The position numbers and the translations under genes were made by a program. Of a stretch of DNA of 64,000 nucleotides, positions 5,895 to 64,000 are shown piece by piece. Numbering within the stretch: position 1 is the stretch's first letter; each line of letters begins with the position of its first letter. The stretch is taken from NCBI GenBank assembly GCA_963845565.1, contig CAWJSJ010000002.1, positions 160,001 to 224,000 on the forward strand, read 5' to 3'. Source of the stretch: an uncultured Methylomirabilota bacterium. Lineage in GTDB: Bacteria > Methylomirabilota > Methylomirabilia > Methylomirabilales > 2-02-FULL-66-22. Under the pieces are notes generated by a model. It did not search any database. It had not been told where the DNA came from and saw only the letters and a program-made list of their open reading frames with translations.

Positions 5895-5944
5895 GCTGCG
5901 TGGCGTGACTGCCCTTCGTTCCCGTTCACGCAATCAAACTAAAG

Positions 5945-5979: not shown

Positions 5980-5989
5980 AAGCGAATCC

Positions 5990-8772: not shown

Positions 8773-9657
8773 TCAGGCGGCCCAGATTTTCGGGAAGGAC
8801 ACCCGCATGGTGAATCCAGCCTGGGGATGATTGTGGCAGGTGCAGACCTGCACGTCCCCCCGAACGCTCAGGAGCATCAGCGCGTCGGCTCGGCTGAGCT
8901 GCAGCCGTTCCCGCAGGATGCCGACCATCTCCTCCACCGCGATGCGCATAGTCTCCAGGCAATCGGCGTGCGCCGCCATGGTGCCGACGCGCCCCTCCCG
9001 CTCCAGCCGGGGCCAGCGGAGCGCCATACCCTTTTTCAGTCCGACCCGCAGGGTCACCTCGGACGGCAGATCGAACCCGCCCCCGGACAGCTCCCCATCC
9101 CCCATGCTGGCATGGACATCCCCGAGGCCGAAGAGTGCTCCCGGCACATTCACCGGCAGGAACACGGTCGCCCCGGGCGCCACATCGTTGTTGTCCATGT
9201 TGCCGCCGTGCGACCCGGCGTACATGTTGCTGACCGGCTCCCCGGCCGGCGCCGTGCCGATGGTCCCGATCATCGGCCGGATCGGGAAGCGGATCTCGGG
9301 CGTGAACACCACGTCGTTCCCCTCGACCCGGAGGATCTTCGCCTGGGAACGGTCCACCACCCCCGTGACGAGGCCCCAGGTCGGTCGGATCGTGGTGTAA
9401 CCCAGGGGGCCCGGCCGGATCTCCAGGATGTCCAGGGTCAGCGCGTCGCCGGGCTCGGCCCCCTCCACCGCGACGGGCCCCGTGGCCGGGTTCGGTCGGA
9501 ACCGTTCCGTGTAGTAGCGGTCCGCCTCGCTCCGGATCGTCCCGTCGTGGGAGTCTTCGGTCTCCAGGCAAAGGACATCGCCCGGCCGCACGGTGACGAC
9601 CGGCGGGATGCTCTTGTCAAACGCGCCGAACGTCTTGTCGCGCCCAACACGTATCAT
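8773..9657 (-). CDS. Acetamidase/formamidase family protein
   Basis: NPATGPVAVEGAEPGD, HGGNMD, GDVHASMGDGE. Confidence 0.9.
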   Translation of the reverse strand: MIRVGRDKTFGAFDKSIPPVVTVRPGDVLCLETEDSHDGTIRSEADRYYTERFRPNPATGPVAVEGAEPGDALTLDILEIRPGPLGYTTIRPTWGLVTGVVDRSQAKILRVEGNDVVFTPEIRFPIRPMIGTIGTAPAGEPVSNMYAGSHGGNMDNNDVAPGATVFLPVNVPGALFGLGDVHASMGDGELSGGGFDLPSEVTLRVGLKKGMALRWPRLEREGRVGTMAAHADCLETMRIAVEEMVGILRERLQLSRADALMLLSVRGDVQVCTCHNHPQAGFTMRVSFPKIWAA

Positions 9658-48400: not shown

Positions 48401-48500
48401 CCAGGAAACCGGCAGCGTCTCCGCGGACGCGCCCAAACAGGTCGCGCCCGATTTCGCGAATTCGTTCCTCCGGGACCGCGAACGCTCTAGGCGCAGCCAT
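45477..48500 (-). CDS. putA: Bifunctional proline dehydrogenase / P5C dehydrogenase
   Basis: LFRFVDVLP, DLLGE, VRLVKGAYWD, YLVRRLLENTSN, PWNFP, EMGGKN, GQKCSACS, EEIFGP. Confidence 0.95.
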   Translation of the reverse strand: MAAPRAFAVPEERIREIGRDLFGRVRGDAAGFLAGDRLTARLLAWAMTDEDAKLQLFRFVDVLPALGDATETVRHLRDYLGDRPGPFARLTRVGLVVAELGWLGELVVAGALRVAVRHLGRRFIAGATPAEAGRAVRRVRRTGLTATLDLLGEACVSDDEAAAYQARYLALVEQLSPAARTWHAHEGLDAAPWGALPRVNVSVKLSALSPYFDPIDPAGAADTVKTRLRPIFRAAQTHNAHIQIDMEDHRLKDLTLQVFTELCAEPEFRSNRNVGIVLQAYLLEAEADARRLVEWALQRGAPITVRLVKGAYWDYEVARARLEGWPIPVYAVKSQTDACFERLTRYFLERANTVDLVLGSHNIRSIAYAAACREAMGLPPKSVEYQVLYGMAAPLARALSEQGERVRVYMPFGELIPGMGYLVRRLLENTSNESFLRRGFADGESPDALLAPPQAGAPAEAAPAPAAPGSRRDALPPFANEPRADFALAIERDRFAEALAGVRRQFGRFHPLVIGGRSVETPDRLASLNPSRPGEVVGWAASATAADVDEAVAAAERAFPDWRDRGVRDRAQLLHRAAVILRERRTDLAAWIVHEAGKPWREADGDVIEAIDFLEYYGREAMDLQAPRRLGEFPGEINLYLREPRGVVGVIAPWNFPLAILTGMTAAALATGNTVVMKPARPTPVIAAHLVAILEEAGLPPGVVNYLPGPGEVVGDRLARHPAVRMIVFTGSREVGARLYGLAAQTVPGARHLKRVVAEMGGKNAIVVDDDADLDEAVQGIVASAFGYSGQKCSACSRVIGVGRVYDRLLARLVEAVRTLPMGAADQPATVVGPLIDQAAQRRVQHYIAAGRSGARPALIRDVPADLGSLGGYFVPPAIFADVPPASPLAQEEIFGPVLSVMPAKDFEAALALAMDSDYALTGGVFSRSPTNLRRAEEAFRVGDLYINRGITGAIVGRQPFGGRQMSGVGYQAGGPDYLIQFVEGRVICEHTLRRGFASDRLARLEG

Positions 48501-48668
48501 TATCACGACCTCCTCGCTGGCGGGCGGGGCGAACGGCCGTTTCCTCTAATGGCGGAGCTGTCAACTGGCTCTGAGGCGGGTCTCGCGCCCGCTGGCCTAA
48601 CCGGGCCAGCGGGCGCGGAGAACACAGGATCGGCCCCCCAACGCACCGCGGCGCCGGGGGAATCGGGC

Positions 48669-49917
48669 TCAGGCTGTCCGAACGCGTGCTCCTGCCTGGC
48701 GCGCGGACACCGTCTCGGGCGAGAACTCCCCTTCCGAGTAGGCGACCGCTGCCGTGCAGGCCACGTCGCCCGTCACGTTGAGGCACGTCCGCCCCATGTC
48801 CAGGATCACGTCGATTCCGGCGATGAGACCGAGACCCTCCAGCGGCAGGCCGACGCCCTGCAGGACCATGGCCAGCATGATCAGGCCGGCGCCCGGAACG
48901 CCCGCCGTCCCGATGGAGCCGAGCGTCGCCAAGAGGATGATCATCAGGTACTGGTTAAATCCAAGTGGCACACCGTAGAGAGACGCGATGAAGAGCGCTG
49001 CGATCCCCTGATAGATGGCCGTGCCGTCCATGTTGACGGTGGCCCCCAGGGGGAGCGTGAAACTGGTAATGCTCCGCGGGAGGCCCAACTTCTCCTCCGA
49101 GACGCGCATCGTCACCGGAAGCGTGGCGTTACTGCTCCGGGTGACGAAGGCCATTACCATGACCTCCGTGATCGCTTTGAAGAATCGGAACGGGTTCACA
49201 TGCGCCAGGATCTGGACGATTGAGGAATAGACGATCGCCACGTGCAGGAAATAGGCGAGGTAGCACACCAGGATGAGGTTCAGGAACGGCAGCAGGACCT
49301 GGGGCCCCTGCTTGGCGATGGTTGCGGCGATGAGCGAGAAAACGCCCAGAGGCGCGAACCACATCACGATCGTCGTCAGCTTGTACATCGTCTCGGCCGC
49401 ACTGTCAGCGACCGCGATTAGAGCCTTGCCCTTGTCCCCGATCAGGACCGCCGCGATTCCGAAGAGAATCGCGAAGACGATCACCGGCAGGACGTCGCCC
49501 TTGGACAACGACTCAAACGGGTTGGTGGTCACCAGATTGAGCAGGACGTCCTTCAGGGCGGGGATGGTGGGCGTCTTGAAGCCGGCGACCGGCGAAAGCT
49601 TCATGCCGGCGGCCGGGTTGAAGATCCCGGCAATGACCAGACCGATGGCAGACGGCGATGGCCGTGGTCGCCAGATAGATCACGATGATCTTGACGCCCA
49701 CGCGTCCGAGCTTGATGGGATCGCTGATGGAGGCCGTACCGGTGAGCAGGGAGAAGAACACCAGGGGCACGATGAGCATCTTCAAGAGCCGGAGGAAGAG
49801 ATCCCCGATCCAGCTCAGACTGAGGCTCGCATCCTTGAAGAGGAGCCCGAAGACCGCGCCAACCGCAAACCCGATCAGAATCCATCCGAGCAGTCCGATC
49901 CGTCGTCCTTCTGCCAT
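48669..49917 (-). CDS. Dicarboxylate/amino acid:cation symporter (DAACS, GltP-like), frameshift near 49650
   Basis: FLRLLKMLIVP in one frame; TRSSNATLP, GATVNMDG and RTCLNVTGD in the next. Confidence 0.9.
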
Positions 49918-50368
49918 GACCCTGTCCTCCATTCGTGCGTCACGAGGCGACCTGGACCCCCTCCCGGTCTCCGTTCGTCAGAATGGTTCGATCATGCCTG
50001 ACGTTCCGAACTCGTCGGTTTCGTTTCACCTCCTATCGGCGCCGGGAACGACCCACGCGGAAAAGGGATCCGCAGAAAAGACGGCCCTCCGGGATCGGCA
50101 CCCCGCAGGGCCACGCTCATCGTGTTCGACGTTCGCCGAGCAACTGGCACACGATCGGATCCCCCAAGGACGTCCATCTGCCGCCCCACCTTCCCCAAGG
50201 GAACCCACGGCTGATTTCGATTGAAGCGTAGTCCGACCCGGCGGCCGCTGTCAAGGCGAATGACCCGAATGATCGGTCTTGCCGGACGCCGGTCGAGACC
50301 GAAAAGGTGCTTATTTATGGCCGGTTATGACGTAATGAAAAATAACCTATTCAAAATATAAAAAAAAC

Positions 50369-50399
50369 TTGACTAGCTGACTCCCCTGGCCGCTACACT
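50369..50399 (+). promoter_or_regulatory. Candidate promoter of the light-stress cluster in an AT-rich patch
   Basis: TTGACT-N19-TACACT preceded by an A/T-rich tract (50335-50368). Confidence 0.4.
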
Positions 50400-50421
50400 C
50401 CGTCTCGTAATGAGGAGCGAA

Positions 50422-51906
50422 ATGGAGCGAATGATTCTGGTGACGGGAGCGACGGGATACATCGGAGGCCGCCTGGTGGCGGCCCTGGAAAACGCGGGGC
50501 ATCGCGTTCGATGTTTGGCGCGTCGGCCCGAGACCCTCCACGGGCGCGTCGGCGCGGGAACCGAGGTTGTGCAGGGAGACTGCTTGGCCCCGGCCAGCCT
50601 CGGTCCCGCCCTGGCCGGCGTCCACACGGCCTACTATCTTGTGCACTCCATGGGAGCTACCAAAGACTTCGCCGCGCTCGACCGTGAGGCGGCATGGGAG
50701 TTTGGGCGGGCGGCACGGGAGGCCGGTGTCCGGCGCATCATCTATCTCGGTGGCCTCGGCGAGCCAAGCGACGACCTATCCGCCCACCTGAAGAGTCGCC
50801 AGGAGACCGGTGATATCTTGCGTGAGAGCGGAGTCCCCGTCGTCGAGTTCCGCGCCTCGATCGTGATTGGCTCCGGCAGCCTTTCGTTTGAGATGGTACG
50901 TGCCCTGGTGGAGCGACTCCCGGTGCTCATCTGCCCGAAGTGGGTCTCCGTCGCTGCCCAACCCATAGCGATCGAGGACCTGATCGCGTATCTGGTGGCG
51001 GCACTCGACCTCCCCGAGGCCAGCGCCGGCATCTTCCCGATCGGCGGGCCGGACGTTGTCTCGTACGGTGACATCATGCGGGAGTACGCTCGCCAGCGGG
51101 GTCTCCGGCGCTGGCTGATCTCCGTGCCCGTCCTCACCCCGCGGCTCTCGAGCCTCTGGCTGGGTCTGGTGACTCCCCTCTATGCTCGGGTGGGCCGGAA
51201 ACTGATCGACAGCCTCAGGAATCCCACCATCGTGCGAGACGAGAGCGCCCGACACACCTTCCAGATCCATCCCCGATCCCTCCGCGAAGCGATCGCCCGG
51301 GCCGCCTCTCTGGAGGATGCCGAGCAGGCAGCCACCCGCTGGTCCGACGCCCTCTCGGCGGGTGGCGTGCAGCCTGCTGGGTGGGGCGGTTCCCGGCTGG
51401 GGACCCGAATCGTGGACAGCCGGGCTGTGACGGTGGACTCGCCCCCCTCTGCGGCCTTCGCTCCGGTGCGTCGCATCGGAGGGGCTCAGGGCTGGTATTG
51501 CGGCAACGCCCTGTGGCGGCTGCGCGGGTTCCTGGATCTCCTGGTGGGCGGCATCGGCATGCGTCGTGGCCGTCGGGATCCAGAGTTGCCCCATCCGGGC
51601 GATGCCCTGGACTTCTGGCGCATAGAAGCCTACGAGCCGGATCACCTCCTGCGTCTGGTTGCCGAGATGAAGCTCCCCGGCCGGGCCTGGCTGCAATTTG
51701 AAGTCACCCCGCGCGCCGGGGACGTCTCCGAGATTCGGCAGACGGCCATCTTCGATCCGGCAGGTCTTGCCGGCTTGCTCTACTGGTACGCTCTCTATCC
51801 GCTGCATGCGATCATCTTCCGCGGGATGCTGAATGGCATCGCGGCAAGGGCGACGTCCGGAGATACGAAGAAACCCCGCCATATCACGCACGAGGTGCTG
51901 GCATGA
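50422..51906 (+). CDS. YbjT-like atypical SDR/NAD(P)-binding oxidoreductase with C-terminal DUF2867
   Basis: ILVTGATGYIG, YYLVHSM, IGSGSLSFE, GDALDFWR, AEMKLPGRAWL, YWYALYPLH. Confidence 0.88.
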   Translation: MERMILVTGATGYIGGRLVAALENAGHRVRCLARRPETLHGRVGAGTEVVQGDCLAPASLGPALAGVHTAYYLVHSMGATKDFAALDREAAWEFGRAAREAGVRRIIYLGGLGEPSDDLSAHLKSRQETGDILRESGVPVVEFRASIVIGSGSLSFEMVRALVERLPVLICPKWVSVAAQPIAIEDLIAYLVAALDLPEASAGIFPIGGPDVVSYGDIMREYARQRGLRRWLISVPVLTPRLSSLWLGLVTPLYARVGRKLIDSLRNPTIVRDESARHTFQIHPRSLREAIARAASLEDAEQAATRWSDALSAGGVQPAGWGGSRLGTRIVDSRAVTVDSPPSAAFAPVRRIGGAQGWYCGNALWRLRGFLDLLVGGIGMRRGRRDPELPHPGDALDFWRIEAYEPDHLLRLVAEMKLPGRAWLQFEVTPRAGDVSEIRQTAIFDPAGLAGLLYWYALYPLHAIIFRGMLNGIAARATSGDTKKPRHITHEVLA

Positions 51907-52679
51907 GTCCCACCACGGAACGAGCGGTCTTCCTCATCCTGGGGGCCACAGGCGGAATCGGCTCGGCGCTGGCTCGGCGCCTGGCGAAGTCGGGCGGCCG
52001 TCTCGCCCTCGCCGCCCGCACGTCGGAGCCACTGGAGAGCCTCGCGCACGAGACCGGCGGTATTGCGATCCGAACGGACGCCACGCAGCCGGCCGAGGTG
52101 GACGCCGCCGTTGCCCGCACCCGTGACGAATACGGTCGGCTGGACGGCGTCGCGCACTGCGTGGGCTCTCTGCTGCTGAAGCCGGCCCATATGACGACCG
52201 ACGAGGAATGGTCGCAGACGCTGAACGCCAACCTTTCGTCGGCCTTCTACCTGTTGCGCGCCGCCGCCCGCGTGATGCAGCGGACCGGCGGATCCATCGT
52301 CCTGGTCTCCTCGGCCGCCGCCTCGACCGGCCTCGCCAACCACGAGGCCATCGCTGCGGCGAAGGGCGGGATCGCTGCCATGGCCACATCCGCCGCCGCA
52401 ACCTACGCCTCCCGGAACATCCGGGTCAATTGCGTGGCCCCCGGCCTGGTCCGGACGCCGTTGACCGCTCGGCTGACCGAGAGCGAGGTATCATTGAAAG
52501 CCTCCCAAGCAATGCACCCGCTGGGACGGATCGGAGATCCCGACGACGTGGCAGCCGCCATCGCCTTCCTGCTGGACCCGGCGAACAACTGGATCACAGG
52601 TCAAGTCCTGGGAGTGGATGGCGGCCTGGCCACCCTCAAGGTATCGGCCGGCCGCTCGGCATCGGCAAACGCATCATGA
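51903..52679 (+). CDS. SDR family oxidoreductase (non-canonical catalytic motif)
   Basis: [38 protein letters not shown] in place of YxxxK. Confidence 0.88.
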
Positions 52680-52809
52680 TAGAACCCACTCGCCAGCCGC
52701 ACATCCCGGCGCCTGCGGCTGGCATCCGCCCGAAGGTGGCTTTGGCGTGGCGCCCAATCGAATGACAGGGGCCAACGGGACCCCCGTGGCCCTGCGAGGA
52801 GGAGATCCA

Positions 52810-53307
52810 ATGAAGGCGATGGTCAATCTCAAGAAGTTGTTCGCTCCCATGTTGGTCGCCGTAGCCCTGGTGGCCTGGGCCGTGATTCCGGCCCCTGCCG
52901 ATACCCAGAAGGACATCGTGGACACCGCCGTCTCGGCTGGCCAGTTCAACACGCTGGCCAAGGCGCTGACCGAGGCCGGGCTCGTCGAGACCCTGAAGGG
53001 TAAGGGACCCTTCACCGTGTTCGCTCCGACGGATGAGGCGTTCGCCAAGTTGCCCGCGGGCACGCTGGAGGCGCTGCTCAAGGACAAGGCGAAGCTCACG
53101 GCGGTCCTCACCTATCACGTCGTTGCAGGGAAGGTGATGGCGTCGGACGTGGTCAAGCTCAGTGAGGCCAAGACAGTCCAGGGACAGAACGTCAAGATCA
53201 CCACCATGAGCGGGGTCATGGTGAACGACGCCCATGTCGTCAAGGCTGACGTCATGGCCAGCAACGGCGTGATCCACGTCATCGACAAAGTGATTCTGCC
53301 CAACTAA
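52810..53307 (+). CDS. Secreted single-domain fasciclin (FAS1) protein
   Basis: Signal peptide, [30 protein letters not shown]. Confidence 0.93.
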
Positions 53308-53315
53308 CCGACCGA

Positions 53316-53350
53316 CCCGCTCCGGGTCTGTAAGGTCCGGAGCGGGCTTT
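53316..53350 (+). terminator. Intrinsic-terminator-like hairpin after the fasciclin gene
   Basis: CCCGCTCCGG-N11-CCGGAGCGGG-CTTT. Confidence 0.5.
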
Positions 53351-53396
53351 CCCTCAGCGTCAGTCGAGCTCAACTTCACGTCACGCGGAGTGTCCC

Positions 53397-54011
53397 ATGT
53401 CATCTCTGACACTGCTGGATGAACTCGAACTCAGGATGCCCCCGGCGGAACGCACCATGGAAGGGGCCGTCACGAGTATTCTGCATGCCATCGGCGAGGA
53501 CCCGAGCCGGGAAGGCCTCCTGAAGACCCCGGAGCGCGTGGCCAAATCCCTCGCCTTCCTGACGTCCGGCGCCGACAAGACCGTGGCGGATGTCTTGAAC
53601 GGTGCCGTCTTCACCGAGGATTACGACCAGATGGTCCTCGTCAAGGACATCGAGTTCTACTCGCTCTGCGAGCACCACATGCTCCCATTCCATGGCAAGG
53701 CCCATATCGCCTACCTCCCGGCCGGTCGTGTGGTCGGGCTCAGCAAGCTGCCCCGTTTGCTTGACGTGTACGCCCGACGCCTGCAAGTCCAGGAGCGTCT
53801 CACGCAGCAGGTCGCCTGGGCGCTTCAGGAAGCCCTGCGGCCCCGCGGCGTCGCGGTGCTCCTCGAGGCCGCCCACTTCTGCATGATGATGCGGGGCGTG
53901 GAGAAGCAGAACTCCAAGACCGTCACCTCGGCCCTGCTGGGCGAGTTCCGGGACTCTCCGGCGCTGCGCAACGAGTTCCTCTCGGCCGTCCGCGGTTCCG
54001 CGTCCTTCTGA
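53397..54011 (+). CDS. folE: GTP cyclohydrolase I
   Basis: [45 protein letters not shown]. Confidence 0.95.
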
Positions 54012-54198
54012 GGCGACGGATACTCCGATGCGGATAAGCTCACCTCTTGCACAGGTCCCTTCCGTGATAGAATCCACACGCCCGGACGCGCCGGGATCGA
54101 AGGATGCCTCGTGTCTTCAAGACAGCGCGGCCACCGGGCGGATCGCGCCGGCATCCTTCCTGTCCCGCTTCTCACCTGTTCCCATGCAAGGGCCCGAC

Positions 54199-55131
54199 AT
54201 GTCCCCTTCTCGTGAGCCGTCTTCGGAGTCCGGAGGCAAGCTGTCCATCGGCGCGCTGTCGCGGGCCACCGGAATCCCGATCGAGACGCTGCGTACCTGG
54301 GAGGCGCGGTACGGCTACCCGGTTCCGGAGCGTAAACCCTCCGGGCATCGCGTGTACCTCCTGACCAGCATCCCGCGGCTCCGACGCATCGCGGAAGCCC
54401 TGGCGCGCGGCCACCGGGCCGGGGATGTGGTCACGGCTTCCGACCAGACCCTCGCCGACCTGTTGGCTGCAACCAGCGTCACCGCGGCAGTCGCTCGGCC
54501 CACGACGGGCATGGTCCCCGGCGGGCCGTCCGACCTTCTGCATGCGATCCAGGCGTTCGATGCGGCCGGCCTTACCCGGACGCTCCTGCAGGATTGGGCA
54601 CGGCTTGGCCCCCTCGACTTCCTGAACACCCGGATCGCTCCCGCCATCCGGGAGATCGGCGACGCCTGGGAAGGTGGCCGTCTCGAGATCCGCCACGAAC
54701 ATTTCTTCTCCGAAAAGGTCGGCGACCTGTTGCGCAGTCTTCGGCTTCCGTTCGAGGAGCGCGGCCACGGCCCGCTGGTGGTGTGCTCCTCGCTCCCAGG
54801 CGAGCGGCACGCCCTCGGCCTCCAGATGGCGACCCTGGTGCTTTCCACCGCCGGCTGCCGCACCTTGTTCTTGGGTACGGAAGTCCCGGCCGCGCAGATT
54901 GCCTCTCTCGCCAGAGACCTCAACGCCCGGGCGGTGGCCGTCAGCGTCTCCCGGGCCTCGCGCGGAGCGGCCATGACCGCCCAGATCTCCAGCTTGCGGC
55001 GGTCGGTGCCACGCCGCGTCGGTCTGGTCGTTGGCGGGGACGGTGCGCCCCGGCCTCGGCCCGGCATAGCCGTGATCCAGGATCTCGCCGAGCTGGATAC
55101 CTGGGGACGGCGCTTGGCCGTTCCGGCCTAG
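54199..55131 (+). CDS. MerR-family B12-binding photoreceptor/repressor (CarH/LitR type)
   Basis: MerR HTH with RTWEARYG; W-x9-EH (WEGGRLEIRHEH); ExHxxG (ERHALG); VSVS and VVGG of the cobalamin Rossmann domain. Confidence 0.88.
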   Translation: MSPSREPSSESGGKLSIGALSRATGIPIETLRTWEARYGYPVPERKPSGHRVYLLTSIPRLRRIAEALARGHRAGDVVTASDQTLADLLAATSVTAAVARPTTGMVPGGPSDLLHAIQAFDAAGLTRTLLQDWARLGPLDFLNTRIAPAIREIGDAWEGGRLEIRHEHFFSEKVGDLLRSLRLPFEERGHGPLVVCSSLPGERHALGLQMATLVLSTAGCRTLFLGTEVPAAQIASLARDLNARAVAVSVSRASRGAAMTAQISSLRRSVPRRVGLVVGGDGAPRPRPGIAVIQDLAELDTWGRRLAVPA

Positions 55132-55153
55132 ACGACACAGAAGGGCGGAGACG

Positions 55154-56579
55154 TTGACGAGGCTGCGCTACCGACGGCATACCCGGATCGCCGCCCCGGC
55201 AGCGGACGTGTTTACCTGGCACGCCCGCCCCGGCGCCCTGGAGCGGCTCACCCCGCCCTGGGAGCAGCGTCACGGTGGAGAGTCGGACGGGCGGCGTCGA
55301 GGCGGGCGCGCGGGTTGTCCTGCGCGTAGAAGCCGGACCGGTCCGGCTTCGCTGGATCGCCGTCCACGACGACGTCATCCCCGGCCGCCAGTTCTGTGAC
55401 CGGCAGGCCCAGGGGCCGTTCCGATACTGGCGGCACCGACACCGCTTCGAGCCGGAGGGGACGTCCGCCTGCCGGCTCGAGGATGACGTCGAATACGCGT
55501 TGCCATTGGGATGGCTCGGGAGTATCGTGGCTGGAGGAAGCATCCATGAAAAGCTCGATCGGATGTTCGCCTATCGCCACGCCGTCACCAAGGCGGACAT
55601 CGAGACGCACGTTGCTCGTGAGGGGCGCCGGGCCATGCATGTCGCCGTCACCGGATCGCGGGGCCTCGTCGGGTCGGCCCTGGTCCCCTTCCTCACGACG
55701 GGTGATCACCGAGTAACCCGCCTGGTCCGCAGGGCGCCTGTCGGCCCCAACGAGGTCGCCTGGGATCCCGCGCGCGGCATGACCGATCTGTCCCGCCTCG
55801 AGGGGGTGGATGCGGTGGTCCATCTGGCCGGGGAGAACATCGCCGCGGGGCGCTGGACACCGGCTCGCAAGGCGGAGATCCGGCGAAGCCGCGTGGAAGG
55901 GACGCGCAGCCTGTGCGAGGCACTGGCCCGCCTGGCACATCCCCCGAAGGTCCTCGTGAGCGCCTCCGCCGTCGGTTTCTACGGAGACCGGGGCGACCAG
56001 ACCCTGACCGAAGAGAGCGGCGCGGGGAATGGCTTCCTGCCCGACGTCTGCCGCGAATGGGAGGCGGCCACCGAGCCGGCATCCCGGGCCGGCATCCGGG
56101 TGGTCAATCTCCGATTCGGCATGATCCTCAGCCCCGCCGGGGGCGCCCTTCGAAAAATGCTCCTGCCCTTCAGGCTGGGGGCGGGTGGGAGGGTCGGCAA
56201 TGGCCGGCAGTTTATGAGCTGGATTGCGCTCGACGACGCCATCGCGGCCATCCATCACTGCCTCTGCGAGGAGTCGGTCCGGGGACCGGTCAACCTGGCG
56301 GCGCCGGGACCGGTGACCAACGCCGACTTCACCCGCATCCTCGCCCGGGTGCTCCGACGGCCCGCCGTGATCCCGCTCCCGGCCTTCGCGGCCCGGCTGC
56401 TCTTCGGCGAGATGGCCGACGCCCTGCTCCTCGCCGGCGCGCGCGTCCTGCCCGCTCGACTCCAGGCGTCAGGGTATCGGTTCCGGTATCCGGATCTTGA
56501 GTCGGCCTTGCGGCATCTGCTCGGCCGGCGGGAAAAGGGACAACTCGGCAACTCGGCAATTGGGCAAGTAGGCAATTAG
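55154..56579 (+). CDS. SRPBCC-domain + TIGR01777 epimerase fusion, frameshift near 55270
   Basis: VFTWHARPGALERLTPPW, then GPFRYWRHRH and VAVTGSRGLVG, HLAGENI, SASAVGFYG, GRQFMSWI in the next frame. Confidence 0.87.
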
Positions 56580-56665
56580 GAAAGGCGGAGGCGCAGGCCC
56601 CAATTCCCCGAATTGCCGAGTCGCCGAGTCGCCCAATTGCCTAATCGCCCAATTGCCCAGTTGCC
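56541..56665. repeat. Inverted pair of octamer tandem arrays (GGCAATTN / NAATTGCC)
   Basis: caactcgg caactcgg caattggg caagtagg caattagg ... ccgaattg ccgagtcg ccgagtcg cccaattg cctaatcg cccaattg cccagttg. Confidence 0.8.
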
Positions 56666-56702
56666 GGCCCGCGTGCAAAACGAGATGCTCCACGGTGAAA
56701 CG

Positions 56703-58199
56703 ATGGACCGCGACCGCATTCGCACCCCACCAGAGCGAATCAGGCGCCTGAACGACCGGCCGGAACGGTCGCGGGCGGATTACGTCCTGTATTGGGTCCA
56801 GATGTACCACCGGGCGGAGCAGAACTGGGCTCTGACGGCGGCCATCGAGGAGGCGAACCGTCTCGCACTGCCCGTCGTGGCGTATCAGGGGCTGGGGCAC
56901 ACCTACCCGCAGGCCAACGACCGGCTCCACCGGTTCATCCTGGAAGGGGTCGCGGAACTCCCGGAGCGGTTCGCGCGACGCGGCATCCGCTACCACTTCT
57001 ATCTGCGCCGACGCGCGACGGACCCGAACGACCTGCTGTACCGCTTGGCGCAACGGGCTGCCTTGGTGGTGACGGATGACTTCCCCGCCTTCTTCATCCC
57101 CGATCAAACCGCCCGCGTCGCCGGCAAGCTGGACGTCGCCATGTCGGCGGTGGACAGTAACGGCATCGTGCCCTTGGCGGCGATCCCAGGGGAGCAATAC
57201 GGCGCCTACACGCTTCGCCCCCGGATACGGCGGCTGCTCCCCGACCACCTCGGTCCCGTGCCGGAACCGTCCGTTATGCGCGATAGTCTGGACCTTCGCC
57301 TTGATGGCCCCGGGACTCAGGTGGCGCTCGACTCGCTCGACTCCTTGATCGCGGGCTGCGCCATCGATCACGATGTCCGACCGTCCTCCGTCTATCGCGG
57401 AGGGTACCGCGAGGCGCGGGAACGGCTTGCCCGATTCATCGCCGGTCCGCTGGACGGCTATGGCACGGCACGCAACCAGCCGGGCGCCGAGACGACATCG
57501 CGGCTGAGCCCGTACCTGCATTTCGGCCAGATCTCCCCGCAAGAAGTCGCCCTGGCCGTCCGGGACGCCACCGGCGCCCCCCGGGAGCATCGGGACGCGT
57601 TCCTGGAGGAGTTGATCGTGCGCCGGGAGCTGGGGTACAATTTCTGCCGGTTCAATCCGAACCATCGAACCCTGGACGCGCTCCCCGCGTGGGCGAAGGC
57701 CACGCTCTCCGCGCACGCGGCTGATCCGCGACCCCACCTGTATGCGCCGGAGGATTTCGAGAACGCCAAGACTCATGATTATCTCTGGAACGCGATCCAG
57801 GCCGAACTGCTGACCACCGGTCTCATGTTCGGCTACTACCGGATGTACTGGGGCAAGAAGATCATCGAGTGGAGCCGCACCCCGGCCGACGCGCAGGCGA
57901 TCATGATCGGCCTGCACGAGAAGTATGCCCTGGACGGCCGGAATGCCAACACCTACAGCAACATCCTCTGGTGTTTCGGCAAGCACGACCGCCCCTGGTT
58001 CGAGCGTCCGGTGTTCGGCAAGGTGCGCTATATGTCGCTCGGCGGGATGGAGTCGAAGACCAACGTCGCATCGTATGTGGACCGGGTTAACCGCTGGTGC
58101 GCGGAGGCCGGCCGGCCGGACCTGTGCGTGCAGGCACCCGTGAAGCCGACACGGACGAAGCGCAATTCTGAAAGGAGGAGTCCTCATGCCCCGCGTTGA
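56703..58199 (+). CDS. phr: Deoxyribodipyrimidine photolyase, class II CPD type
   Basis: YVLYW..HRAEQNWAL, SRLSPYLHFGQIS, EELIVRREL, RMYWGKKIIEW, LDGRN, HDRPW.ERPVFGKVRYM. Confidence 0.93.
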   Translation: MDRDRIRTPPERIRRLNDRPERSRADYVLYWVQMYHRAEQNWALTAAIEEANRLALPVVAYQGLGHTYPQANDRLHRFILEGVAELPERFARRGIRYHFYLRRRATDPNDLLYRLAQRAALVVTDDFPAFFIPDQTARVAGKLDVAMSAVDSNGIVPLAAIPGEQYGAYTLRPRIRRLLPDHLGPVPEPSVMRDSLDLRLDGPGTQVALDSLDSLIAGCAIDHDVRPSSVYRGGYREARERLARFIAGPLDGYGTARNQPGAETTSRLSPYLHFGQISPQEVALAVRDATGAPREHRDAFLEELIVRRELGYNFCRFNPNHRTLDALPAWAKATLSAHAADPRPHLYAPEDFENAKTHDYLWNAIQAELLTTGLMFGYYRMYWGKKIIEWSRTPADAQAIMIGLHEKYALDGRNANTYSNILWCFGKHDRPWFERPVFGKVRYMSLGGMESKTNVASYVDRVNRWCAEAGRPDLCVQAPVKPTRTKRNSERRSPHAPR

Positions 58200-58533
58200 C
58201 TGGAGCTATCACCGCCCCGGGTGAAAGACCTGCGCCAAGACGCAAGAGTTTCTTGCGAAGAAGAAGGTCGAGACCGTGACGCAGGTGGACGCCAAGAAGA
58301 CGACGCTGAAGGAGGCAGAGGCCCTGGCGCTGGTCCGGGAGGTGGACGAGATCTACGCCAGCAAGGGAAAGCAGGTCGTGCATCTCGACCTCCGGAAGGA
58401 GAAGCCGGACAAGGCCGCCCTCCTGGGTCTGCTGCTCGGGCCGACGGGAAATCTGCGGGCGCCGACGCTGCGGAAAGGGCGGACGCTCCTCGTCGGTTTC
58501 GACGAGGTGTCCTACGCCGCAGTCCTGAAGTAG
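58186..58533 (+). CDS. ArsC/Spx-like thioredoxin-fold selenoprotein (UGA 58222-58224 read as Sec; UxxC motif), 115 aa
   Basis: AGGAGGAG RBS; MPRVDWSYHRPG-UGA-KTCAKTQEFL continues in frame into the 58276 ORF (GPTGNLRAPTL, LVGFD); SECIS-like hairpin downstream. Confidence 0.82.
58241..58257 (+). promoter_or_regulatory. Candidate bacterial SECIS stem-loop
   Basis: CGCAAGA-GTT-TCTTGCG; the apical loop starts with GU, with the G 24 nt after the UGA. Confidence 0.65.
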
Positions 58534-58542
58534 GAGAACGGT

Positions 58543-59040
58543 ATGCTCCACCGCGAGGCCCGGCGAAATCCGGCGTGGCAGGCTCTCGTCTTGGGCCTCT
58601 TCTACCTGGTGTGTTTCCTGGCCGCGGGCCTGGGCTCGCTGTTCACCATGGCCTCTGTCGGGGGCTGGTACACCACGCTCGTCAAGCCGTCGTGGCGCCC
58701 CCCGGATTGGATCTTCGGGCCAGTCTGGACCGTCCTGTACGCCACCATGGCCGTCGCCGGCTGGTTGGTGTGGCGGCGGGGCGGCCTGGCGAGCGTGCCG
58801 GCCCTTCGGTGGTTCGCGGCGCAGCTCGTCCTGAACGTCGGCTGGTCGGTCGTCTTCTTCGGCCTCCGGATGCCGGGGCTGGCGTTCGCCGAGATCCTGG
58901 CGCTCTGGCTTGCCATCGCGGCGACGTTGATGACATCCTGGCGAGTGTCCCGACCCGCGGGTATCTTGCTGGTCCCGTATCTGTTGTGGGTGAGCTTCGC
59001 GACGGTCCTGAATTTCGCCATCTGGAGGCTGAACGCGTGA
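58543..59040 (+). CDS. tspO: TspO/MBR tryptophan-rich sensory protein
   Basis: WYTTLVKPSWRPPDWIFGPVWTVLY, LNVGWSVVFF, PYLLWVSFATVLN. Confidence 0.93.
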   Translation: MLHREARRNPAWQALVLGLFYLVCFLAAGLGSLFTMASVGGWYTTLVKPSWRPPDWIFGPVWTVLYATMAVAGWLVWRRGGLASVPALRWFAAQLVLNVGWSVVFFGLRMPGLAFAEILALWLAIAATLMTSWRVSRPAGILLVPYLLWVSFATVLNFAIWRLNA

Positions 59041-60326
59041 CGCATCCGGGTGGAACGCTCGTTCCGGTGGCCATCGTAGGCGCGGGGCTGGCCGGCCTCG
59101 CCTGCGCGCGGACCCTCGCCAAGGCCGGCGTCTCCGTCACGATCCTGGAGGCGTCGGACGGCGTCGGGGGGCGCGTCCGGACGGATACGGTCGAGGGCTT
59201 TCGCCTGGACCGCGGCTTCCAGGTCTTCTTCACCGCCTATCCCGAGGCGCGGGCCGTGCTCGATTACCCGGCGCTCGATCTTCACGCCTTCGCGCCGGGC
59301 GCCCTGGTACGGGTCGACGGACGTTTCTATCGGATCATGGACCCGGCCCGCCGCCCCTTCGCCGCCCTGGCAGGGTTGTTTGCTCCGGTCGGGTCTCTCT
59401 CGGATAAGGCGAACACGCTCCGGCTTCGTCGGCAGGTTCTGTCTGCCTCCGTGGACTCCATTTTTTCCGCGCCGGAGCGGACCACGGAGGTCGCACTCAA
59501 AGAGTTCGGCTTCTCCGATCGCATCCTGGATCGCTTTTTTCGCCCGTTCTTCGGAGGGATTTTCCTTGAACGGGATCTCACGACCTCCAGCCGGATGCTC
59601 CGCTTCGTGTACCGGATGTTGGCCGAGGGCGATACGGTTCTGCCGGCCGAGGGCATGGAGGCCATCCCGCGACAGCTCGCCGCGGCCCTGCCCGAGGGCT
59701 CGATTCGCCTCCGCGCCCGCGTGACCGCCGTCGAGCCGGGCGCGGACTCCGCCCTGGTCCTCTTGGAGGGCGGGGAATGGCTGCGCGCCGGAGTCGTGGT
59801 CCTGGCAACCGAGGGCGACGCGGCGGCGGCGCTCACGGGGGCCTTCCCGGCGCCAAGGCCGCGACCGGTTGCGTGCCTCTATTTCTCCGCCGACCGCGCT
59901 CCGCTGCAGGAGCCCCTCCTCGTCCTGGATGGGGACGGCTGCGGACCCGTAAGTACCCTTGCCGTGCCAAGCCGAGTGGCGCCCAGTTACGCCCCGGCGG
60001 GCGGCCACCTGATCTCGGCCACGGTCCTGGGCGCGCCCGTCGAAAGCGACGCGGGTCTGGAGGCGCGCGTTCGCGGGCAACTCGCGGGCTGGTTCGGGAC
60101 GGCGCCGGTGGCTCGCTGGCGGTATCTTCGGACTTATCGGATTCCCTTCGCCCAGTTCGATCAATCGCCGGGCGTCCTGGAGCCCGCCCACCGCCCGGTC
60201 CGGCTCGGGCCCCGGCTCTTCGTCTGCGGCGACCATGTAGAGAACGCCTCCATCAATGGCGCCATGGCCGCCGGCCGCCGTGCAGCCGAGGCCATACTCG
60301 CCTCCCCGCAAGGAGTCCTGTCATGA
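59037..60326 (+). CDS. FAD-dependent oxidoreductase (amine oxidase / protoporphyrinogen oxidase-like)
   Basis: IVGAGLAG, EASDGVGGRVRTD, LDRGFQV, CGDH..SINGAMAAG; GTG start overlaps the tspO stop. Confidence 0.87.
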   Translation: MTHPGGTLVPVAIVGAGLAGLACARTLAKAGVSVTILEASDGVGGRVRTDTVEGFRLDRGFQVFFTAYPEARAVLDYPALDLHAFAPGALVRVDGRFYRIMDPARRPFAALAGLFAPVGSLSDKANTLRLRRQVLSASVDSIFSAPERTTEVALKEFGFSDRILDRFFRPFFGGIFLERDLTTSSRMLRFVYRMLAEGDTVLPAEGMEAIPRQLAAALPEGSIRLRARVTAVEPGADSALVLLEGGEWLRAGVVVLATEGDAAAALTGAFPAPRPRPVACLYFSADRAPLQEPLLVLDGDGCGPVSTLAVPSRVAPSYAPAGGHLISATVLGAPVESDAGLEARVRGQLAGWFGTAPVARWRYLRTYRIPFAQFDQSPGVLEPAHRPVRLGPRLFVCGDHVENASINGAMAAGRRAAEAILASPQGVLS

Positions 60327-61303
60327 CCACGCCAGCCGACGCGCCCGAAGGAGACGGCCGGCCCATCCGGGTCGGGATCAGTAGCTGCCTCCTCGGCAAC
60401 GAGGTCCGCTTCGATGGCGGCCACAAGCGGGACCGGTATCTCACGGACACCCTCGGACAGTTCTTCGAATGGGTGTCGGTCTGCCCCGAGGTCGAAATGG
60501 GCCTGGGCACGCCGCGCGAGACCCTCCGGCTCATCGGAGATGCGTCGGCCCCCCGCCTGGTGTTCGGAAAGACCCGTGGAGACCAGACCGACGGAATGCA
60601 GAACTGGTCGAAGGCGCGACTGGAGCAGCTCGCGACCGCGGATCTCTGCGGGTACATCCTGAAGAGCGACTCGCCGAGCTGTGGGATGGAGCGGGTGCGC
60701 GTCTACGGAGAAAGTGGGATGGCCAGCAAGACCGGGGTCGGCATCTACGCCCGCGCCCTGCTGGATCGCTTCCCCCTCCTGCCGGTGGAAGAGGAGGGCC
60801 GGCTCCACGACCTGCCCTTGCGCGAGAATTTCGTGGAGCGCGTCTTCTGCTACCGCCGCTGGCGCGATCTGACGGCCGGGGGCCTCACCCGGGGGAAGCT
60901 GGTGGCCTTCCATACCGCCCACAAGCTCCTGCTCATGGCCCACAGCCCCAAACACTACACGGCGCTGGGACAACTCGTGGCCGCCGCCAAGGCGCGTTCC
61001 CCGCGAGAACTGGAAGCCGAGTACGGTGCGCTCTTCATGACGGCCCTCAAGATCAAGGCGTCGGCCAAGAAGCACGTGAACGTCCTGCAGCACATCCTGG
61101 GGTACCTGAAGCGCGACCTGGACGCCAAGGACAAAACAGAACTCCTGGCCGTGTTCGGCGATTACCACAAGAACCTGGTTCCCCTGGTGGTGCCCCTGAC
61201 GCTCCTGAAGCACCACCTGGCCCGGATCCCGGTCCCGTACATCCAAGACCAGATCTATCTCCACCCTCACCCCAAGGAACTGATGCTCCGCAACCACGTG
61301 TGA
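60323..61303 (+). CDS. DUF523 + DUF1722 (YbgA-like) thiouracil desulfidase-family protein
   Basis: GISSCLLG..VRFDGGHK, CPEVEMGLGTPR, KSDSPSCG, EEEGRL, FHTAHK, NVLQHILGY, YLHPHP. Confidence 0.92.
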   Translation: MTTPADAPEGDGRPIRVGISSCLLGNEVRFDGGHKRDRYLTDTLGQFFEWVSVCPEVEMGLGTPRETLRLIGDASAPRLVFGKTRGDQTDGMQNWSKARLEQLATADLCGYILKSDSPSCGMERVRVYGESGMASKTGVGIYARALLDRFPLLPVEEEGRLHDLPLRENFVERVFCYRRWRDLTAGGLTRGKLVAFHTAHKLLLMAHSPKHYTALGQLVAAAKARSPRELEAEYGALFMTALKIKASAKKHVNVLQHILGYLKRDLDAKDKTELLAVFGDYHKNLVPLVVPLTLLKHHLARIPVPYIQDQIYLHPHPKELMLRNHV

Positions 61304-61317
61304 GGTCTGCGCACGCC

Positions 61318-62790
61318 ATGAGCGACGGGATACGTCCGGGAGAAAACGAGGGAGAGGTAGGGACACGCTGTGCACTGGCGCGCGCCGCCCAAGAGGAATG
61401 GAGCGCGCGTCCACTCGCCGCGCGCGTCCGGGTCATCGAGGGAGCCGCCCGACTGCTCGCCGGGGAGGCGCCTCGTCTCGCCGCGCTGCTGTCCGAGGCG
61501 TCCGGGCAAGCGCCCGCGGCCCTGTGGAGCGCGGAGATCCTGCCCACCCTGGACGCCCTGCGCTGGCTGGCGCGCGTTGGGGCTCGGCATCTCGCGCCGC
61601 AGCCGCTCCGGCGGTCGCGCCTGCAGTGGTATGTCCGCGCCACCCGTCACACACTCACCTGGGATCCTTTCGGTGTGGTGGGGGTGATCACGCCGGGAAA
61701 CGCCCCGCTCTTTCTGTCCGTCCCCCAGGTTGCGGCCGCTCTGCTGGCAGGGAACGGCGTCCTCTGGAAGCCGGCGCCGGCCGGCGATGCGCTCGCCGTC
61801 CTTGCGGCCTCCGCCTTCCGGCAAGCCGGCCTGCCCGAAGACCTCCTCCAGGTGGTCCAGGGCGGGGCGGAGGCCGCGCGGTCCGTGGTCGAGGTTGGCG
61901 TGGACAAGCTGTTCTTCACGGGAGGCTCGGCGGCAGGCCTCAGCCTGTACCGCCTGCAGGCCGAGCGGGGTCGGCCTGCCGTCCTGGAGCTTTCCGGCCG
62001 CCACGTCGCGGTGGTGCTCGCCGACGCGGACCTGACCATGGCGGCGCGCGGGATCACCTGGGGGAAGCTGGCCAACCGGGGGCGGAACTGCATCTCCGTC
62101 CAGCTGGTTCTGGTGGCGCGGCCGGCCTATGCGGACTTCCTTGCACGGGCCGGCAATGCGATGGCCGTTGCGGCGGCGGCGCCCGACCTCGGCCCTCCGA
62201 ATCCGAGTGGGCTGGCGCGCCTCCGTCGGCTGACGGAGGAGGCCGTGGAGCGCGGCGCACGCCTGATCTGCGGCAATGGCACGGGGCCCACGCTCCTCGC
62301 GGACGTTGCGCCCGGCATGTGGGTCGTGGACGAAGAGATTCAGGGGCCGATCCTGACGGCGGCGCCGGTGGACTCGGAAGCGGAGGCGATCGCCTGGATC
62401 AACCGGGGCGCCTACCGGCTCTCCGCCAGCCTGTGGTCGGCTGACCCTGTGCGGGCGCGCCACATGGCGGCGAGGCTGGACGTCGGACAGGTCTGGATCA
62501 ACGACGCCCTGCATCCGGTCGCCCAGCCCGCCGTTCCGCTGGTCGGTCGCGGGCAGAGCGGCTTCGGCGCCAGCCGCGGCCTGGCGGGCCTGCTGGAGAT
62601 GGTCCAGCCGAAGGTGACCTCCGAGACGCCCGTGCGCGCGGCGCGGCGCCACTACGACCCCATCCCCCCGGCAGGCGCCGACCTGTTCCGGGAGACGGTC
62701 GCGGTGGCCTTCGCCTCCGGCGCGAAGTCCCGCCTTGCCGGCCTGGGCCGGCTGCTGCGAACCCTGATCGGACTGGTGGGGGCGCGATGA
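61318..62790 (+). CDS. Aldehyde dehydrogenase family protein (possibly carotenoid aldehyde oxidase)
   Basis: GVVGVITPGN, WKP, FFTGG, LELSG, GRNCIS catalytic Cys, EEIQGP; overlaps a CrtI-like gene. Confidence 0.85.
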   Translation: MSDGIRPGENEGEVGTRCALARAAQEEWSARPLAARVRVIEGAARLLAGEAPRLAALLSEASGQAPAALWSAEILPTLDALRWLARVGARHLAPQPLRRSRLQWYVRATRHTLTWDPFGVVGVITPGNAPLFLSVPQVAAALLAGNGVLWKPAPAGDALAVLAASAFRQAGLPEDLLQVVQGGAEAARSVVEVGVDKLFFTGGSAAGLSLYRLQAERGRPAVLELSGRHVAVVLADADLTMAARGITWGKLANRGRNCISVQLVLVARPAYADFLARAGNAMAVAAAAPDLGPPNPSGLARLRRLTEEAVERGARLICGNGTGPTLLADVAPGMWVVDEEIQGPILTAAPVDSEAEAIAWINRGAYRLSASLWSADPVRARHMAARLDVGQVWINDALHPVAQPAVPLVGRGQSGFGASRGLAGLLEMVQPKVTSETPVRAARRHYDPIPPAGADLFRETVAVAFASGAKSRLAGLGRLLRTLIGLVGAR

Positions 62791-64000
62791 GCCGGATCGT
62801 CGTCGTCGGGGCGGGGTTTGCCGGGCTGACCGCAGGGGCCGTCCTGGCAGCCCGGGGTCATGCGGTGACCGTCGTGGAGGCTGGCCCGACGGTCGGCGGC
62901 CTGGCGTGCCGCATGACGGCGGCCGGGGCCCGCGTGGATCTCGGCCCCACCATCCTCACCGATCTCACCCCCCTTCGACTCCTCGCGGAGCGGCTCGGCG
63001 CCTCCCTGGAGAGCTTGGCAGCTGTCAGGCGGCTCGACCCTGGCTTTGTGGCCACGTTCCCCGGCGGGATCGCCCTCCCGTTCCATACGGACCCGACCCG
63101 CGTGCGATCCGCCCTTGCAGCCCTGGGACCCGAGGCGGCGACGGACTGGGAGCGGGTTCGCGATCTCGGATCACGCGCGCTGCGGCTCGCCGAGCACTAT
63201 TATTCCCGCGGCGACATCAGCGGACCGCGCGATCTGGTGGGGTTTCTCATGGGAGGCGGCATCGCCCTGGGCGACGTCATGCCGTTCCTCCGCCATGGCT
63301 CGCTCGCCCGCCTGCTCAGCGCCACCGTTCACACCCCGGCCCTGCGGACGCTCCTCGGTCATTTCGCACGGCTCATGGGGGCGGATGCCGAGACCGCGCC
63401 GGCCGTCTCCCTGGTGATTCCCCATCTCCTCACCCAGCTCGGCGTCTGGTACCCAGACGGCGGCATCGCGGCACTGGCGGAGACGGTGGGCCGTCTGGCC
63501 GAAAAGCACGGGGCGTCCCTGCGGCTCGGCGAGGCCGTGGAAGGGCTGGAGACCTCAGGCGGCCGGGTGACTGCCGCCCGGACGGCGGGCGGGCGCCTGC
63601 CGACCGACGCGTGCGTGTGCGCCGTGGACCTCGCCACCACGGCCCGCTGGATCGGCACCGGTCGTCTCGGACGGCTGGCAGCACGGCTCCGACCGGCCCG
63701 GACGGCGCGTGTCGCCTGGTGGCTGGTGGAGGGTCGGCCGCCCGTCGCCATCCATCATGCGTACCACTTCGGGGCGGACCGCGCCACCGAGCCGCTCTAT
63801 GTGGCCGTCCCCACCCTGACCGACCCGTCCCTGGCGCCGGAGGGGGCCAGCATCGTGTACGCGCTCCGCCACTGTCCGGCGAACCAGCCGCAGGCGCCGG
63901 AGTTTGCCCAGGTTCTGCAGGCGGCTGTCGCTGCGGCCGATCAGTGGCCGGGCGGGCGCGTTCTCGCCTCGGGCCTCTTCACCGACGCGACGAGCTGTTA
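62787..64000 (+). CDS. Phytoene desaturase (CrtI/CrtN/CrtP) family protein, truncated by window end
   Basis: Own translation from ATG 62787: MSRIVVVGAGFAGL..EAGPTVGG..VDLGPTILT; GVWYPDGGI; LYVAVPTLTDPSLAPEG. Confidence 0.8.
   Translation, partial: MSRIVVVGAGFAGLTAGAVLAARGHAVTVVEAGPTVGGLACRMTAAGARVDLGPTILTDLTPLRLLAERLGASLESLAAVRRLDPGFVATFPGGIALPFHTDPTRVRSALAALGPEAATDWERVRDLGSRALRLAEHYYSRGDISGPRDLVGFLMGGGIALGDVMPFLRHGSLARLLSATVHTPALRTLLGHFARLMGADAETAPAVSLVIPHLLTQLGVWYPDGGIAALAETVGRLAEKHGASLRLGEAVEGLETSGGRVTAARTAGGRLPTDACVCAVDLATTARWIGTGRLGRLAARLRPARTARVAWWLVEGRPPVAIHHAYHFGADRATEPLYVAVPTLTDPSLAPEGASIVYALRHCPANQPQAPEFAQVLQAAVAAADQWPGGRVLASGLFTDATSC

Follow-up and report, generated by a model that had tools for sequence, protein, structure and literature searches.

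A probable selenoprotein of the ArsC-related NF041106 family in a predicted light/UV-stress operon of a Methylomirabilota bacterium

The DNA analysed here, referred to as the window, is a 64,000-nt stretch from an uncultured Methylomirabilota bacterium (assembly GCA_963845565.1, contig CAWJSJ010000002.1, positions 160,001 to 224,000). From position 50410 to approximately position 62790 it carries a run of 12 genes on the same strand, with gaps of -14 to 184 nt. In order, these encode a DUF2867 epimerase-like protein, a short-chain dehydrogenase, a fasciclin-domain protein, FolE, a CarH-type regulator, an SRPBCC-TIGR01777 protein, a class II photolyase (phr), a putative selenoprotein, TspO, a flavin oxidoreductase, a RudS-type protein and an aldehyde dehydrogenase (Table 1). 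The identities that an earlier note, made by reading this DNA without database searches, had given to the class II photolyase, the CarH-type regulator with its MerR and B12-binding domains, and TspO all hold; the photolyase scores 428.6 bits against TIGR00591, below the cut-off of 550, and the regulator scores 110 bits against the NCBIfam CarH equivalog, below the cut-off of 400. In Pseudomonas, comparable sets of genes are induced by light under LitR (PMC9758184), and RudS genes often lie within light-responsive operons (PMC11417400). Judging by gene order, the selenoprotein gene would be co-transcribed with phr and tspO, its translation would be coupled to the phr stop, and, should the upstream CarH control the gene run, light would induce it.

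Table 1. Positions, in window coordinates, of the selenoprotein gene, its parts and the genes around it
Feature	Positions	Strand	Basis or remark
NAD-binding/DUF2867 protein and short-chain dehydrogenase, opening the run	50410..52679	+	annotation
Fasciclin-domain protein	52810..53307	+	annotation
folE, GTP cyclohydrolase I	53397..54011	+	annotation
CarH-type regulator, Wx9EH and ExHxxG motifs	54199..55131	+	MerR HTH and B12-binding domains; motifs as in PMC9304148
SRPBCC-like domain fused to TIGR01777/DUF1731 epimerase-like protein	55154..56579	+	frame break near 55260-55275
Class II CPD photolyase (phr)	56685..58199	+	start 56685 or 56703
Ribosome-binding site AGGAGGAG	58173..58180	+	within photolyase 3' end; 5 nt before ATG 58186
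ArsC-related selenoprotein gene (predicted), 115 aa, U13-K-T-C16	58186..58533	+	NF041106
In-frame UGA, codon 13, inferred Sec13	58222..58224	+	conservation in homologues
Cys16, predicted resolving cysteine	58231..58233	+	unchanged across the 66-sequence alignment
Bacterial SECIS-type hairpin, 7 bp, GUU loop	58241..58257	+	folding, homologue comparison
85-aa stub ORF, as standard callers report	58276..58533	+	ORF calls, database proteins
TspO	58543..59040	+	annotation
Flavin amine-oxidoreductase-family protein	59067..60326	+	start approximate
RudS-type DUF523 + DUF1722 protein (tRNA 4-thiouridine desulfidase family)	60323..61303	+	family as in PMC11417400

Our search for regulatory signals around these genes was negative for CarH operators: there are no tandem 11-bp TnnACA/TnnRCA repeats in the cluster and no relaxed triplets in 49900-63000, and the window as a whole holds no strict TnnACA pair and three relaxed pairs, all outside the cluster. 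In other bacteria, CarH operators can be degenerate, or there may be none beside carH (PMC9304148). A sigma-70 scan gave three weak sites against 0.9 expected, none of them at the cluster start, and terminators were not in excess (7 against 6.2). Contigs from the RNA libraries of two studies (X16, 57884-58799; X17, 57882-58646) each span phr, the selenoprotein gene and tspO; they represent related strains, with 12 and 44 differing letters, and may derive from DNA, such that neither co-transcription nor a light effect is thereby proven.

The start of the selenoprotein gene overlaps the end of phr, whose stop codon lies at 58197-58199, by 14 nt, and most homologues have a purine-rich ribosome-binding site positioned as it is here. 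The frame reads MPRVDWSYHRPG-TGA-KTC-AKTQEFL and continues with no shift via the GTG at 58276 to a TAG at 58531-58533, giving 115 codons. The earlier note had described the ribosome-binding site and overlapping ATG, the shift-free passage through the UGA into the downstream ORF, and the truncation of the gene by standard callers, all of which are borne out. Indeed, a protein search returned 2919 homologues, and the CxxC start is missing from 114 of the 120 matches listed and present in 6; most of the CxxC-less proteins among the matches listed are stubs of 82-88 aa. In our predicted model, the corresponding 85-aa stub lacks the active site and the first strand and helix. We suggest that the gene call deserves correction, because databases carry the 82-88 aa stub without the active site. 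Three database proteins (P0002, P0072 and P0075) have a tryptophan at the UGA site, most likely as artefacts of the callers. The read-through product is basic, with 22 K/R and 14 D/E residues counted from the sequence.

Conservation of the UGA was assessed in two sets of sequences. The first consists of 60 related genomes, which are incomplete, so that a gene "not found" in them is not to be equated with an absent one; 19 match NF041106 over the cut-off, each with exactly one TGA. The second was drawn from the best 80 of 499 relatives fetched, of which 6 repeated the first set and were dropped, leaving 74 distant loci. Among the best 80 of 499, the nearest named loci to the selenoprotein gene belong to Methylomirabilota. 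The UGA column is TGA in 71 of the 74 distant loci and a Cys codon in three, matching the expectation in the earlier note that homologues would have Cys or Sec at this position; Cys is found there in 6 database proteins as well as these 3 genome loci. A sequencing error at the TGA is ruled out by its conservation across homologues, and the reads show no change at 58222-58224 among the 40 matches listed. Reading of TGA as tryptophan (genetic code 4) is likewise ruled out: TGA stops 740 of the genome's 1404 long ORFs, and the sole tRNA with a UCA anticodon is tRNA-Sec. Since TGA is the commonest stop in the genome, the in-frame UGA points to recoding rather than another genetic code.

The earlier note had also placed a 7-bp hairpin with a GU-starting loop 24 nt past the UGA, and this is correct: the stem is CGCAAGA/UCUUGCG, the loop GUU occupies 58248-58250, and 23 nt separate the UGA from the loop, which begins at the 24th base. 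The bacterial SECIS model requires a loop of 3-9 nt, a stem of 4-16 bp, a G in the first two loop positions, a spacing of 16-37 nt, and a minimum free energy of at most -7.5 kcal/mol (PMC13188914). The hairpin fits the geometry; the 54-57 nt past the UGA fold at -14.9 kcal/mol, within the limit, and the isolated upper stem at -7.4 kcal/mol is borderline. By itself the hairpin is modest in a shuffle test (z = -2.25 for 58222-58275), with z scores of -0.16 to -2.21 for four other fold windows, some of them in another register. The stem is made of the rare codons CAA, TTT and CTT, which have synonymous shares of 15%, 15% and 5% in the 1404 long ORFs, and synonymous recoding of this gene gave an equally stable hairpin in 4% of 200 recodings. 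Across homologues, however, the hairpin exceeds chance: one lying 22-23 nt after the UGA, with a G in the first two loop positions, was found in 89 of 90 TGA loci, where synonymous recoding predicts 36.6, and in none of the 3 Cys loci; this count uses a threshold of -3 kcal/mol that was our choice, and leaves out relative G020, whose motif is UxxY. Relatedness among the loci, and the fact that the three Cys loci form one clade, mean that the hairpin and UGA counts are not independent events. On sequence comparison, the UGA at codon 13 is very likely decoded as selenocysteine, helped by the hairpin that follows it.

Decoding of this kind would depend on SelB, which, following the known bacterial pathway, would bind the hairpin and deliver Sec-tRNA to the UGA. 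Profile searches of the genome found selA (578 bits), tRNA-Sec (selC; 76 bits) and an intact selD (343 bits) that has its own in-frame TGA followed by a hairpin. The check for selABCD proposed in the earlier note thus came out positive for selA, selC and selD; selB is present too, on contig C4 (about 5490-7400), but in this assembly three +1 insertions interrupt its first 300 bp. If selB were broken, the UGA could be a true stop in this strain, leaving a pseudogene or a gene from which the 85-aa stub alone is made, and damage to the gene in relatives (half deleted in G018, cut after approximately 32 codons in G044, Cys16 changed to Tyr in G020) would be in keeping with such decay. However, in a 97%-identical metagenome contig (L170) precisely these three bases are absent and the selB frame is open, frame breaks occur at 6 of the 47 orthologue sites tested in this assembly, and selB is found over the cut-off in 53 of the 60 relatives. 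We therefore regard the selB breaks as likely assembly errors. Intact selA, selC and UGA-containing selD, and a stub that would lack the active site, first strand and helix, also argue against a true stop, which we consider extremely improbable. None of the findings that the earlier note had named as fatal to a selenoprotein was encountered, namely TGC or TGT in the reads, homologues without Cys or Sec at this position, or a genome without selABCD.

The read-through protein matches the NCBIfam model NF041106, "ArsC family (seleno)protein", with 143.6 bits against a cut-off of 85 over model positions 1-107 of 107, and has the UxxC motif of that family as U13-K-T-C16; it also scores 30.4 bits against Pfam ArsC (PF03960; cut-off 24). 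In a 2026 review (PMC13188914), NF041106 appears under the name "Arsenate reductase-like protein" with a UxxC motif and a citation of Zhang and Gladyshev 2008. That Global Ocean Sampling study (PMC2398784) has a row "Arsenate reductase 2" (cd03032, UxxC), counting 42 sequences with Sec and 238 with Cys; the row is most probably the same family. These matches, the predicted fold and the Sec machinery support the claim of the earlier note that this is a UxxC selenoprotein gene of the ArsC/thioredoxin fold, but not that it is hidden or unusual, given a curated family with a UxxC form listed since 2008. The gene, correctly spotted but an ordinary find, adds one more member to a selenoprotein family already on record. 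Methylomirabilota can have very large selenoproteomes, with 63 genes in one metagenome-assembled genome (PMC13188914), and selenocysteine use here belongs to the protein family and to a Sec-rich phylum rather than to the light operon. Our literature search, mostly outside subscription journals and without supplements, found no paper on the function of NF041106 or joining the family to photolyase or CarH.

To consider what the protein does, we used an AlphaFold model (pLDDT 92.9) and an alignment of 66 sequences, from which G020, with its Tyr at position 16, was excluded. The model has a thioredoxin-like core with an insertion domain, as in the ArsC/Spx/YffB fold. Foldseek gave Spx as the best match (E = 6.5e-5), and structure comparison matched the ArsC-related 3gkx (VIA Z 9.5, rmsd 2.7, 90 aligned) and YffB (Z 9.1, rmsd 2.8, 86 aligned); a single-sequence search of the PDB gave nothing below E = 0.03. 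Invariant in the alignment are W6, Y8, R10, G12, U/C13, C16, G85, P86, G88, L90, R91, A92, P93, G104 and F105.

The family name suggests a reductase for arsenate or a similar oxyanion, consistent with the Pfam ArsC score, with the invariance of R10 and R91, and with the basic composition noted above. E. coli ArsC, however, is matched by Foldseek only at E = 0.14-0.34, and K60 and invariant A92 align to R60 and R92 of Spx. We take those Spx residues to be equivalent to Arg60 and Arg94 of E. coli ArsC (triad Arg60/Arg94/Arg107). No ars genes are found among the annotated neighbours (58 proteins from 23 loci). H9-x3-U13 corresponds to the first half of the ArsC motif HX3CX3R, but the closing position is A17, which is variable across the 66 sequences (motif from PMC3169414). 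On balance we think an oxyanion reductase improbable. We attach slightly less weight still to the idea of a redox-sensing transcription factor that, like Spx, binds RNA polymerase. The best match by sequence is to Spx chains (profile E = 4.4e-8) as well as by Foldseek, and both proteins have an N-terminal CxxC; nonetheless, the protein scores 34.5 bits against TIGR01617 (cut-off 75) and 20.4 bits against the Spx model (cut-off 123), Gly52 of Spx is a gap or Glu and RPI is APT (features from PMC4180751), and the insertion has a predicted beta-hairpin at 55-68, where YffB has helices.

The protein thus shares its fold with ArsC and Spx but carries the signature residues of neither. Its most likely activity, going by sequence and model, would be dithiol-type oxidoreduction in which Sec13 attacks and Cys16 resolves. 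By fold and motif, the selenolate of Sec13 would attack an oxidised sulfur on the substrate, Cys16 would resolve the mixed bond to leave a selenenyl-sulfide, and a cellular reductant would then restore the protein; the invariant R10 and R91, together with the cis-Pro-like P93, may shape an anion-friendly active site.

We next turn to the genes around it. The earlier note had coupled the selenoprotein to the photolyase and to CarH, and neither coupling is supported by the relatives. Among the 19 related genomes with the selenoprotein gene over the cut-off, three (G017, G022 and G016) have a full-length photolyase gene immediately upstream, the one in G016 being split over two contigs with two internal TAG codons. 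In G004 and G014, a remnant of phr comprising its last 46-52 codons precedes an intact selenoprotein gene; the photolyase has therefore been deleted there and the selenoprotein kept. A CarH query matched in G008 and G023 alone, neither of which has the selenoprotein gene over the cut-off (the G008 contig ends just past TIGR01777), such that none of the 19 has a CarH match. TIGR01777 and RudS are more constant neighbours: TIGR01777 is upstream in 11 of the 19, once across a contig break, and RudS is downstream in 7, one of them broken. The selenoprotein gene is damaged or missing in G002, G018, G020 and G044, and it stands alone, outside any such cluster, in eight genomes of one family (f7). 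In 6 of these 8 loci it is divergent to fae and mtdB; we gave no weight to this formaldehyde/methanopterin link because it involves one family and opposite strands. One lineage (genus g1 and a neighbouring family) holds a TIGR01777-phr-selenoprotein-(tspO)-RudS operon that is decaying piecemeal, the version in this genome, with CarH, being the fullest seen. The photolyase-adjacent arrangement is local, and most relatives have lost it or never had it.

Apart from the selenoprotein gene itself, no family recurs as a neighbour in more than 10 of the 74 distant loci, and a light-type cluster gene lies near the selenoprotein gene in 5: TIGR01777 in L032 and L055, RudS in L056 (24 nt downstream), a photolyase in convergent orientation in L086, and an SRPBCC-like gene with a distant fasciclin gene in L041. 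A sixth locus, with a 24% match to aldehyde dehydrogenase, was left out of the count. On a tree of 94 rows and 114 columns, in which 52 of 91 branches are open, the light-linked rows are scattered, with 8 changes, 3 of them forced by starred branches. With 69 of 74 distant loci lacking light-type cluster genes, the special link between selenium and light that the earlier note had proposed is weakly supported; there is a faint sign of a recurring tie to stress clusters, and the counts speak against a strict one. For the lineage with the light operon, a role in photo-oxidative defence is plausible from this analysis.

An alternative possibility is that the selenoprotein is a dedicated light/UV part that keeps the photolyase or RudS, an Fe-S tRNA desulfidase, reduced and active, and that the operon reflects this role. 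G016, G017 and the G014 remnant retain the 14-nt overlap with phr, the same 7 of 19 relatives have RudS within 1 kb downstream, and RudS genes, as cited above, commonly sit in operons that respond to light. The distant TIGR01777, RudS and photolyase neighbours in L032, L055, L056 and L086 could be read in the same way; the L056 protein falls apart from this genus on a poorly resolved tree. Nonetheless, neither photolyase nor a remnant adjoins the selenoprotein gene in 14 of the 19 relatives, and light clusters occur where the gene was not found in the stretches fetched: G052 has phr, tspO, RudS and DUF2867, G036 has phr, RudS and DUF2867, and G023 has CarH-like, fasciclin and phr-like genes. 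In G002, TIGR01777 is joined directly to RudS, with the selenoprotein gene missing between them. Conversely, the gene is kept without a genome-wide RudS match in G004, G005 and G022, and the distant loci lack light-type neighbours in 37 of the 41 with 3 kb on both sides, as in the 69 of 74 overall. We consider a dedicated light/UV partner unlikely. The more specific proposal that a Methylomirabilales lineage recruited the selenoprotein into a B12-photoreceptor operon as a reductant for RudS (or photolyase) is, in our estimate, more doubtful again. If it were true, light would switch on a selenium enzyme that aids removal of a UV-sensitive tRNA base by RudS, and RudS (or photolyase) would be the first substrate for the uncharacterised NF041106 family.

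We propose instead, with a probability of roughly 0.72, that the gene encodes a member of NF041106 in which UGA13 is read as selenocysteine via the hairpin, and that this small, general thiol-disulfide oxidoreductase is located in a predicted light/UV-stress operon but is no dedicated photolyase partner. Most likely, one lineage has placed a general dithiol-type oxidoreductase in its light/UV operon. The operon context is a modest lead to follow (RudS, TIGR01777, light induction), and the locus offers a minor example of a light-stress operon being lost bit by bit in a lineage reported to have very large selenoproteomes; a general link between selenium and light biology is not shown by these findings.

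The closest known system is NF041106 (ArsC_rel_Se_1) itself, which the protein resembles in its whole-length match, UxxC motif and length, and in the dominance of the Sec form with rare Cys forms; the protein is identical in kind, and the difference lies in gene context alone (TIGR01777, photolyase, TspO and RudS, plus CarH here). The gene run resembles the LitR/CarH clusters of the Pseudomonas pplR/pmlR regions, in which the same kinds of gene (phrB, folE, short-chain dehydrogenase, FAD oxidoreductase, RudS) surround a CarH/LitR-family regulator (PMC9758184, PMC11417400), but here the regulator is a CarH of class I type that has both B12 motifs, the photolyase is class II, a selenoprotein has been added, and the operator search was negative. 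With glutaredoxin-dependent ArsC of the E. coli R773 type and with YffB, the protein shares the PF03960 fold family and the H-x3-C/U start of the catalytic motif; unlike them, it has a second Cys and no Arg at the close of HX3CX3R, probably lacks the Arg60 and Arg94 positions, as judged by alignment through Spx, and was not seen in ars operons among the annotated neighbours. Lastly, Bacillus Spx and MgsR (TIGR01617) share with it the thioredoxin-like core with an insertion, the N-terminal CxxC, and a proline before the third core strand, whereas the protein scores below their cut-offs, lacks Gly52 and RPI, has a predicted beta-hairpin in the insertion, and would carry selenocysteine in place of the first Cys.

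The selB gene of the source genome (loci L005 and L009) contains three single-base insertions within 300 bp; their net effect is that the frame is regained, leaving an open frame of 664 codons in which the GTPase domain is scrambled. A 97%-identical metagenome contig (L170) carries selB without these three insertions. To the left of the predicted operon, a transporter-like gene, presumably a dicarboxylate/amino acid symporter judging by its sequence motifs, is broken into two overlapping frames, and its counterparts in relatives are single ORFs of 412-420 aa. The split is likely to be another assembly error. A 1009-aa gene upstream resembles bifunctional proline dehydrogenases and is putatively PutA, and a homologue also stands before TIGR01777 in the related genome G005. 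Within the operon, the SRPBCC-like N-terminal part of the TIGR01777 gene begins in a different frame from the remainder; in G008 and G002, an SRPBCC-like gene is instead placed after RudS, and TIGR01777 is a separate gene of ~300 aa.

Coordinates of the features discussed
Feature	Sequence	Position	Strand	Location
1009-aa gene	window	45477-48506	-	upstream
Transporter-like gene	window	48669-49932	-	
AT-rich patch	window	50310-50410		ahead of first gene of same-strand run
Conserved non-coding stretch	window	54045-54075		5' of carH
SRPBCC-like N-terminal part of TIGR01777 gene, in a different frame	window	55154-55275		
selB	G000:C4	~5490-7400		
TIGR01777-Sec gene fusion	G018:C35 (L153)	9100-9320		
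Sec gene and neighbours	L056	5720-9267	all one strand	

The AT-rich patch, which includes an A-run and TTGACT, is a candidate for the main promoter of the same-strand run; it is not among the sites given in the output of the sigma-70 scan. The short stretch ahead of carH is conserved between the window and the G008 locus L165 (TTGcACAGGT...TCCGTGATAGA) and resembles an internal promoter that contains a single TnnACA.

Among relatives, G018 has lost the UGA-containing half of the Sec gene through a deletion, and the remaining second half is now fused to the end of TIGR01777. U-K-T-Y replaces U-K-T-C in G020 (L151), and just the first ~32 codons are present in G044 (L173). In both G044 and G048, selB, TIGR01777 and the Sec gene lie on one contig. 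For family f7 (L144-L149, L154), the Sec gene is divergent to fae and a methylene-H4MPT dehydrogenase gene in six of the eight loci, at the edge of a methanopterin C1 cluster. At the distant locus L056, it is found with genes for a CrtC-type lipocalin, RudS, D-aminoacyl-tRNA deacylase and a BrxA-type disulfide isomerase.

Families f4, f7 and others (L126-L134) also carry another, more divergent group of ArsC-like genes, whose reading frame likewise contains a TGA (NLEG-U-PTC, NRAG-U-PAC). This group is present in ~20 relatives, where it scores under the NF041106 cut-off, and may represent another Sec subfamily.

The AlphaFold model of the Sec-gene protein (me4f73b1a22a4) predicts a beta-hairpin at residues 55-68, within the insertion domain. 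The fold relative YffB has helices at the same site; the hairpin may be a structural mark of family NF041106.
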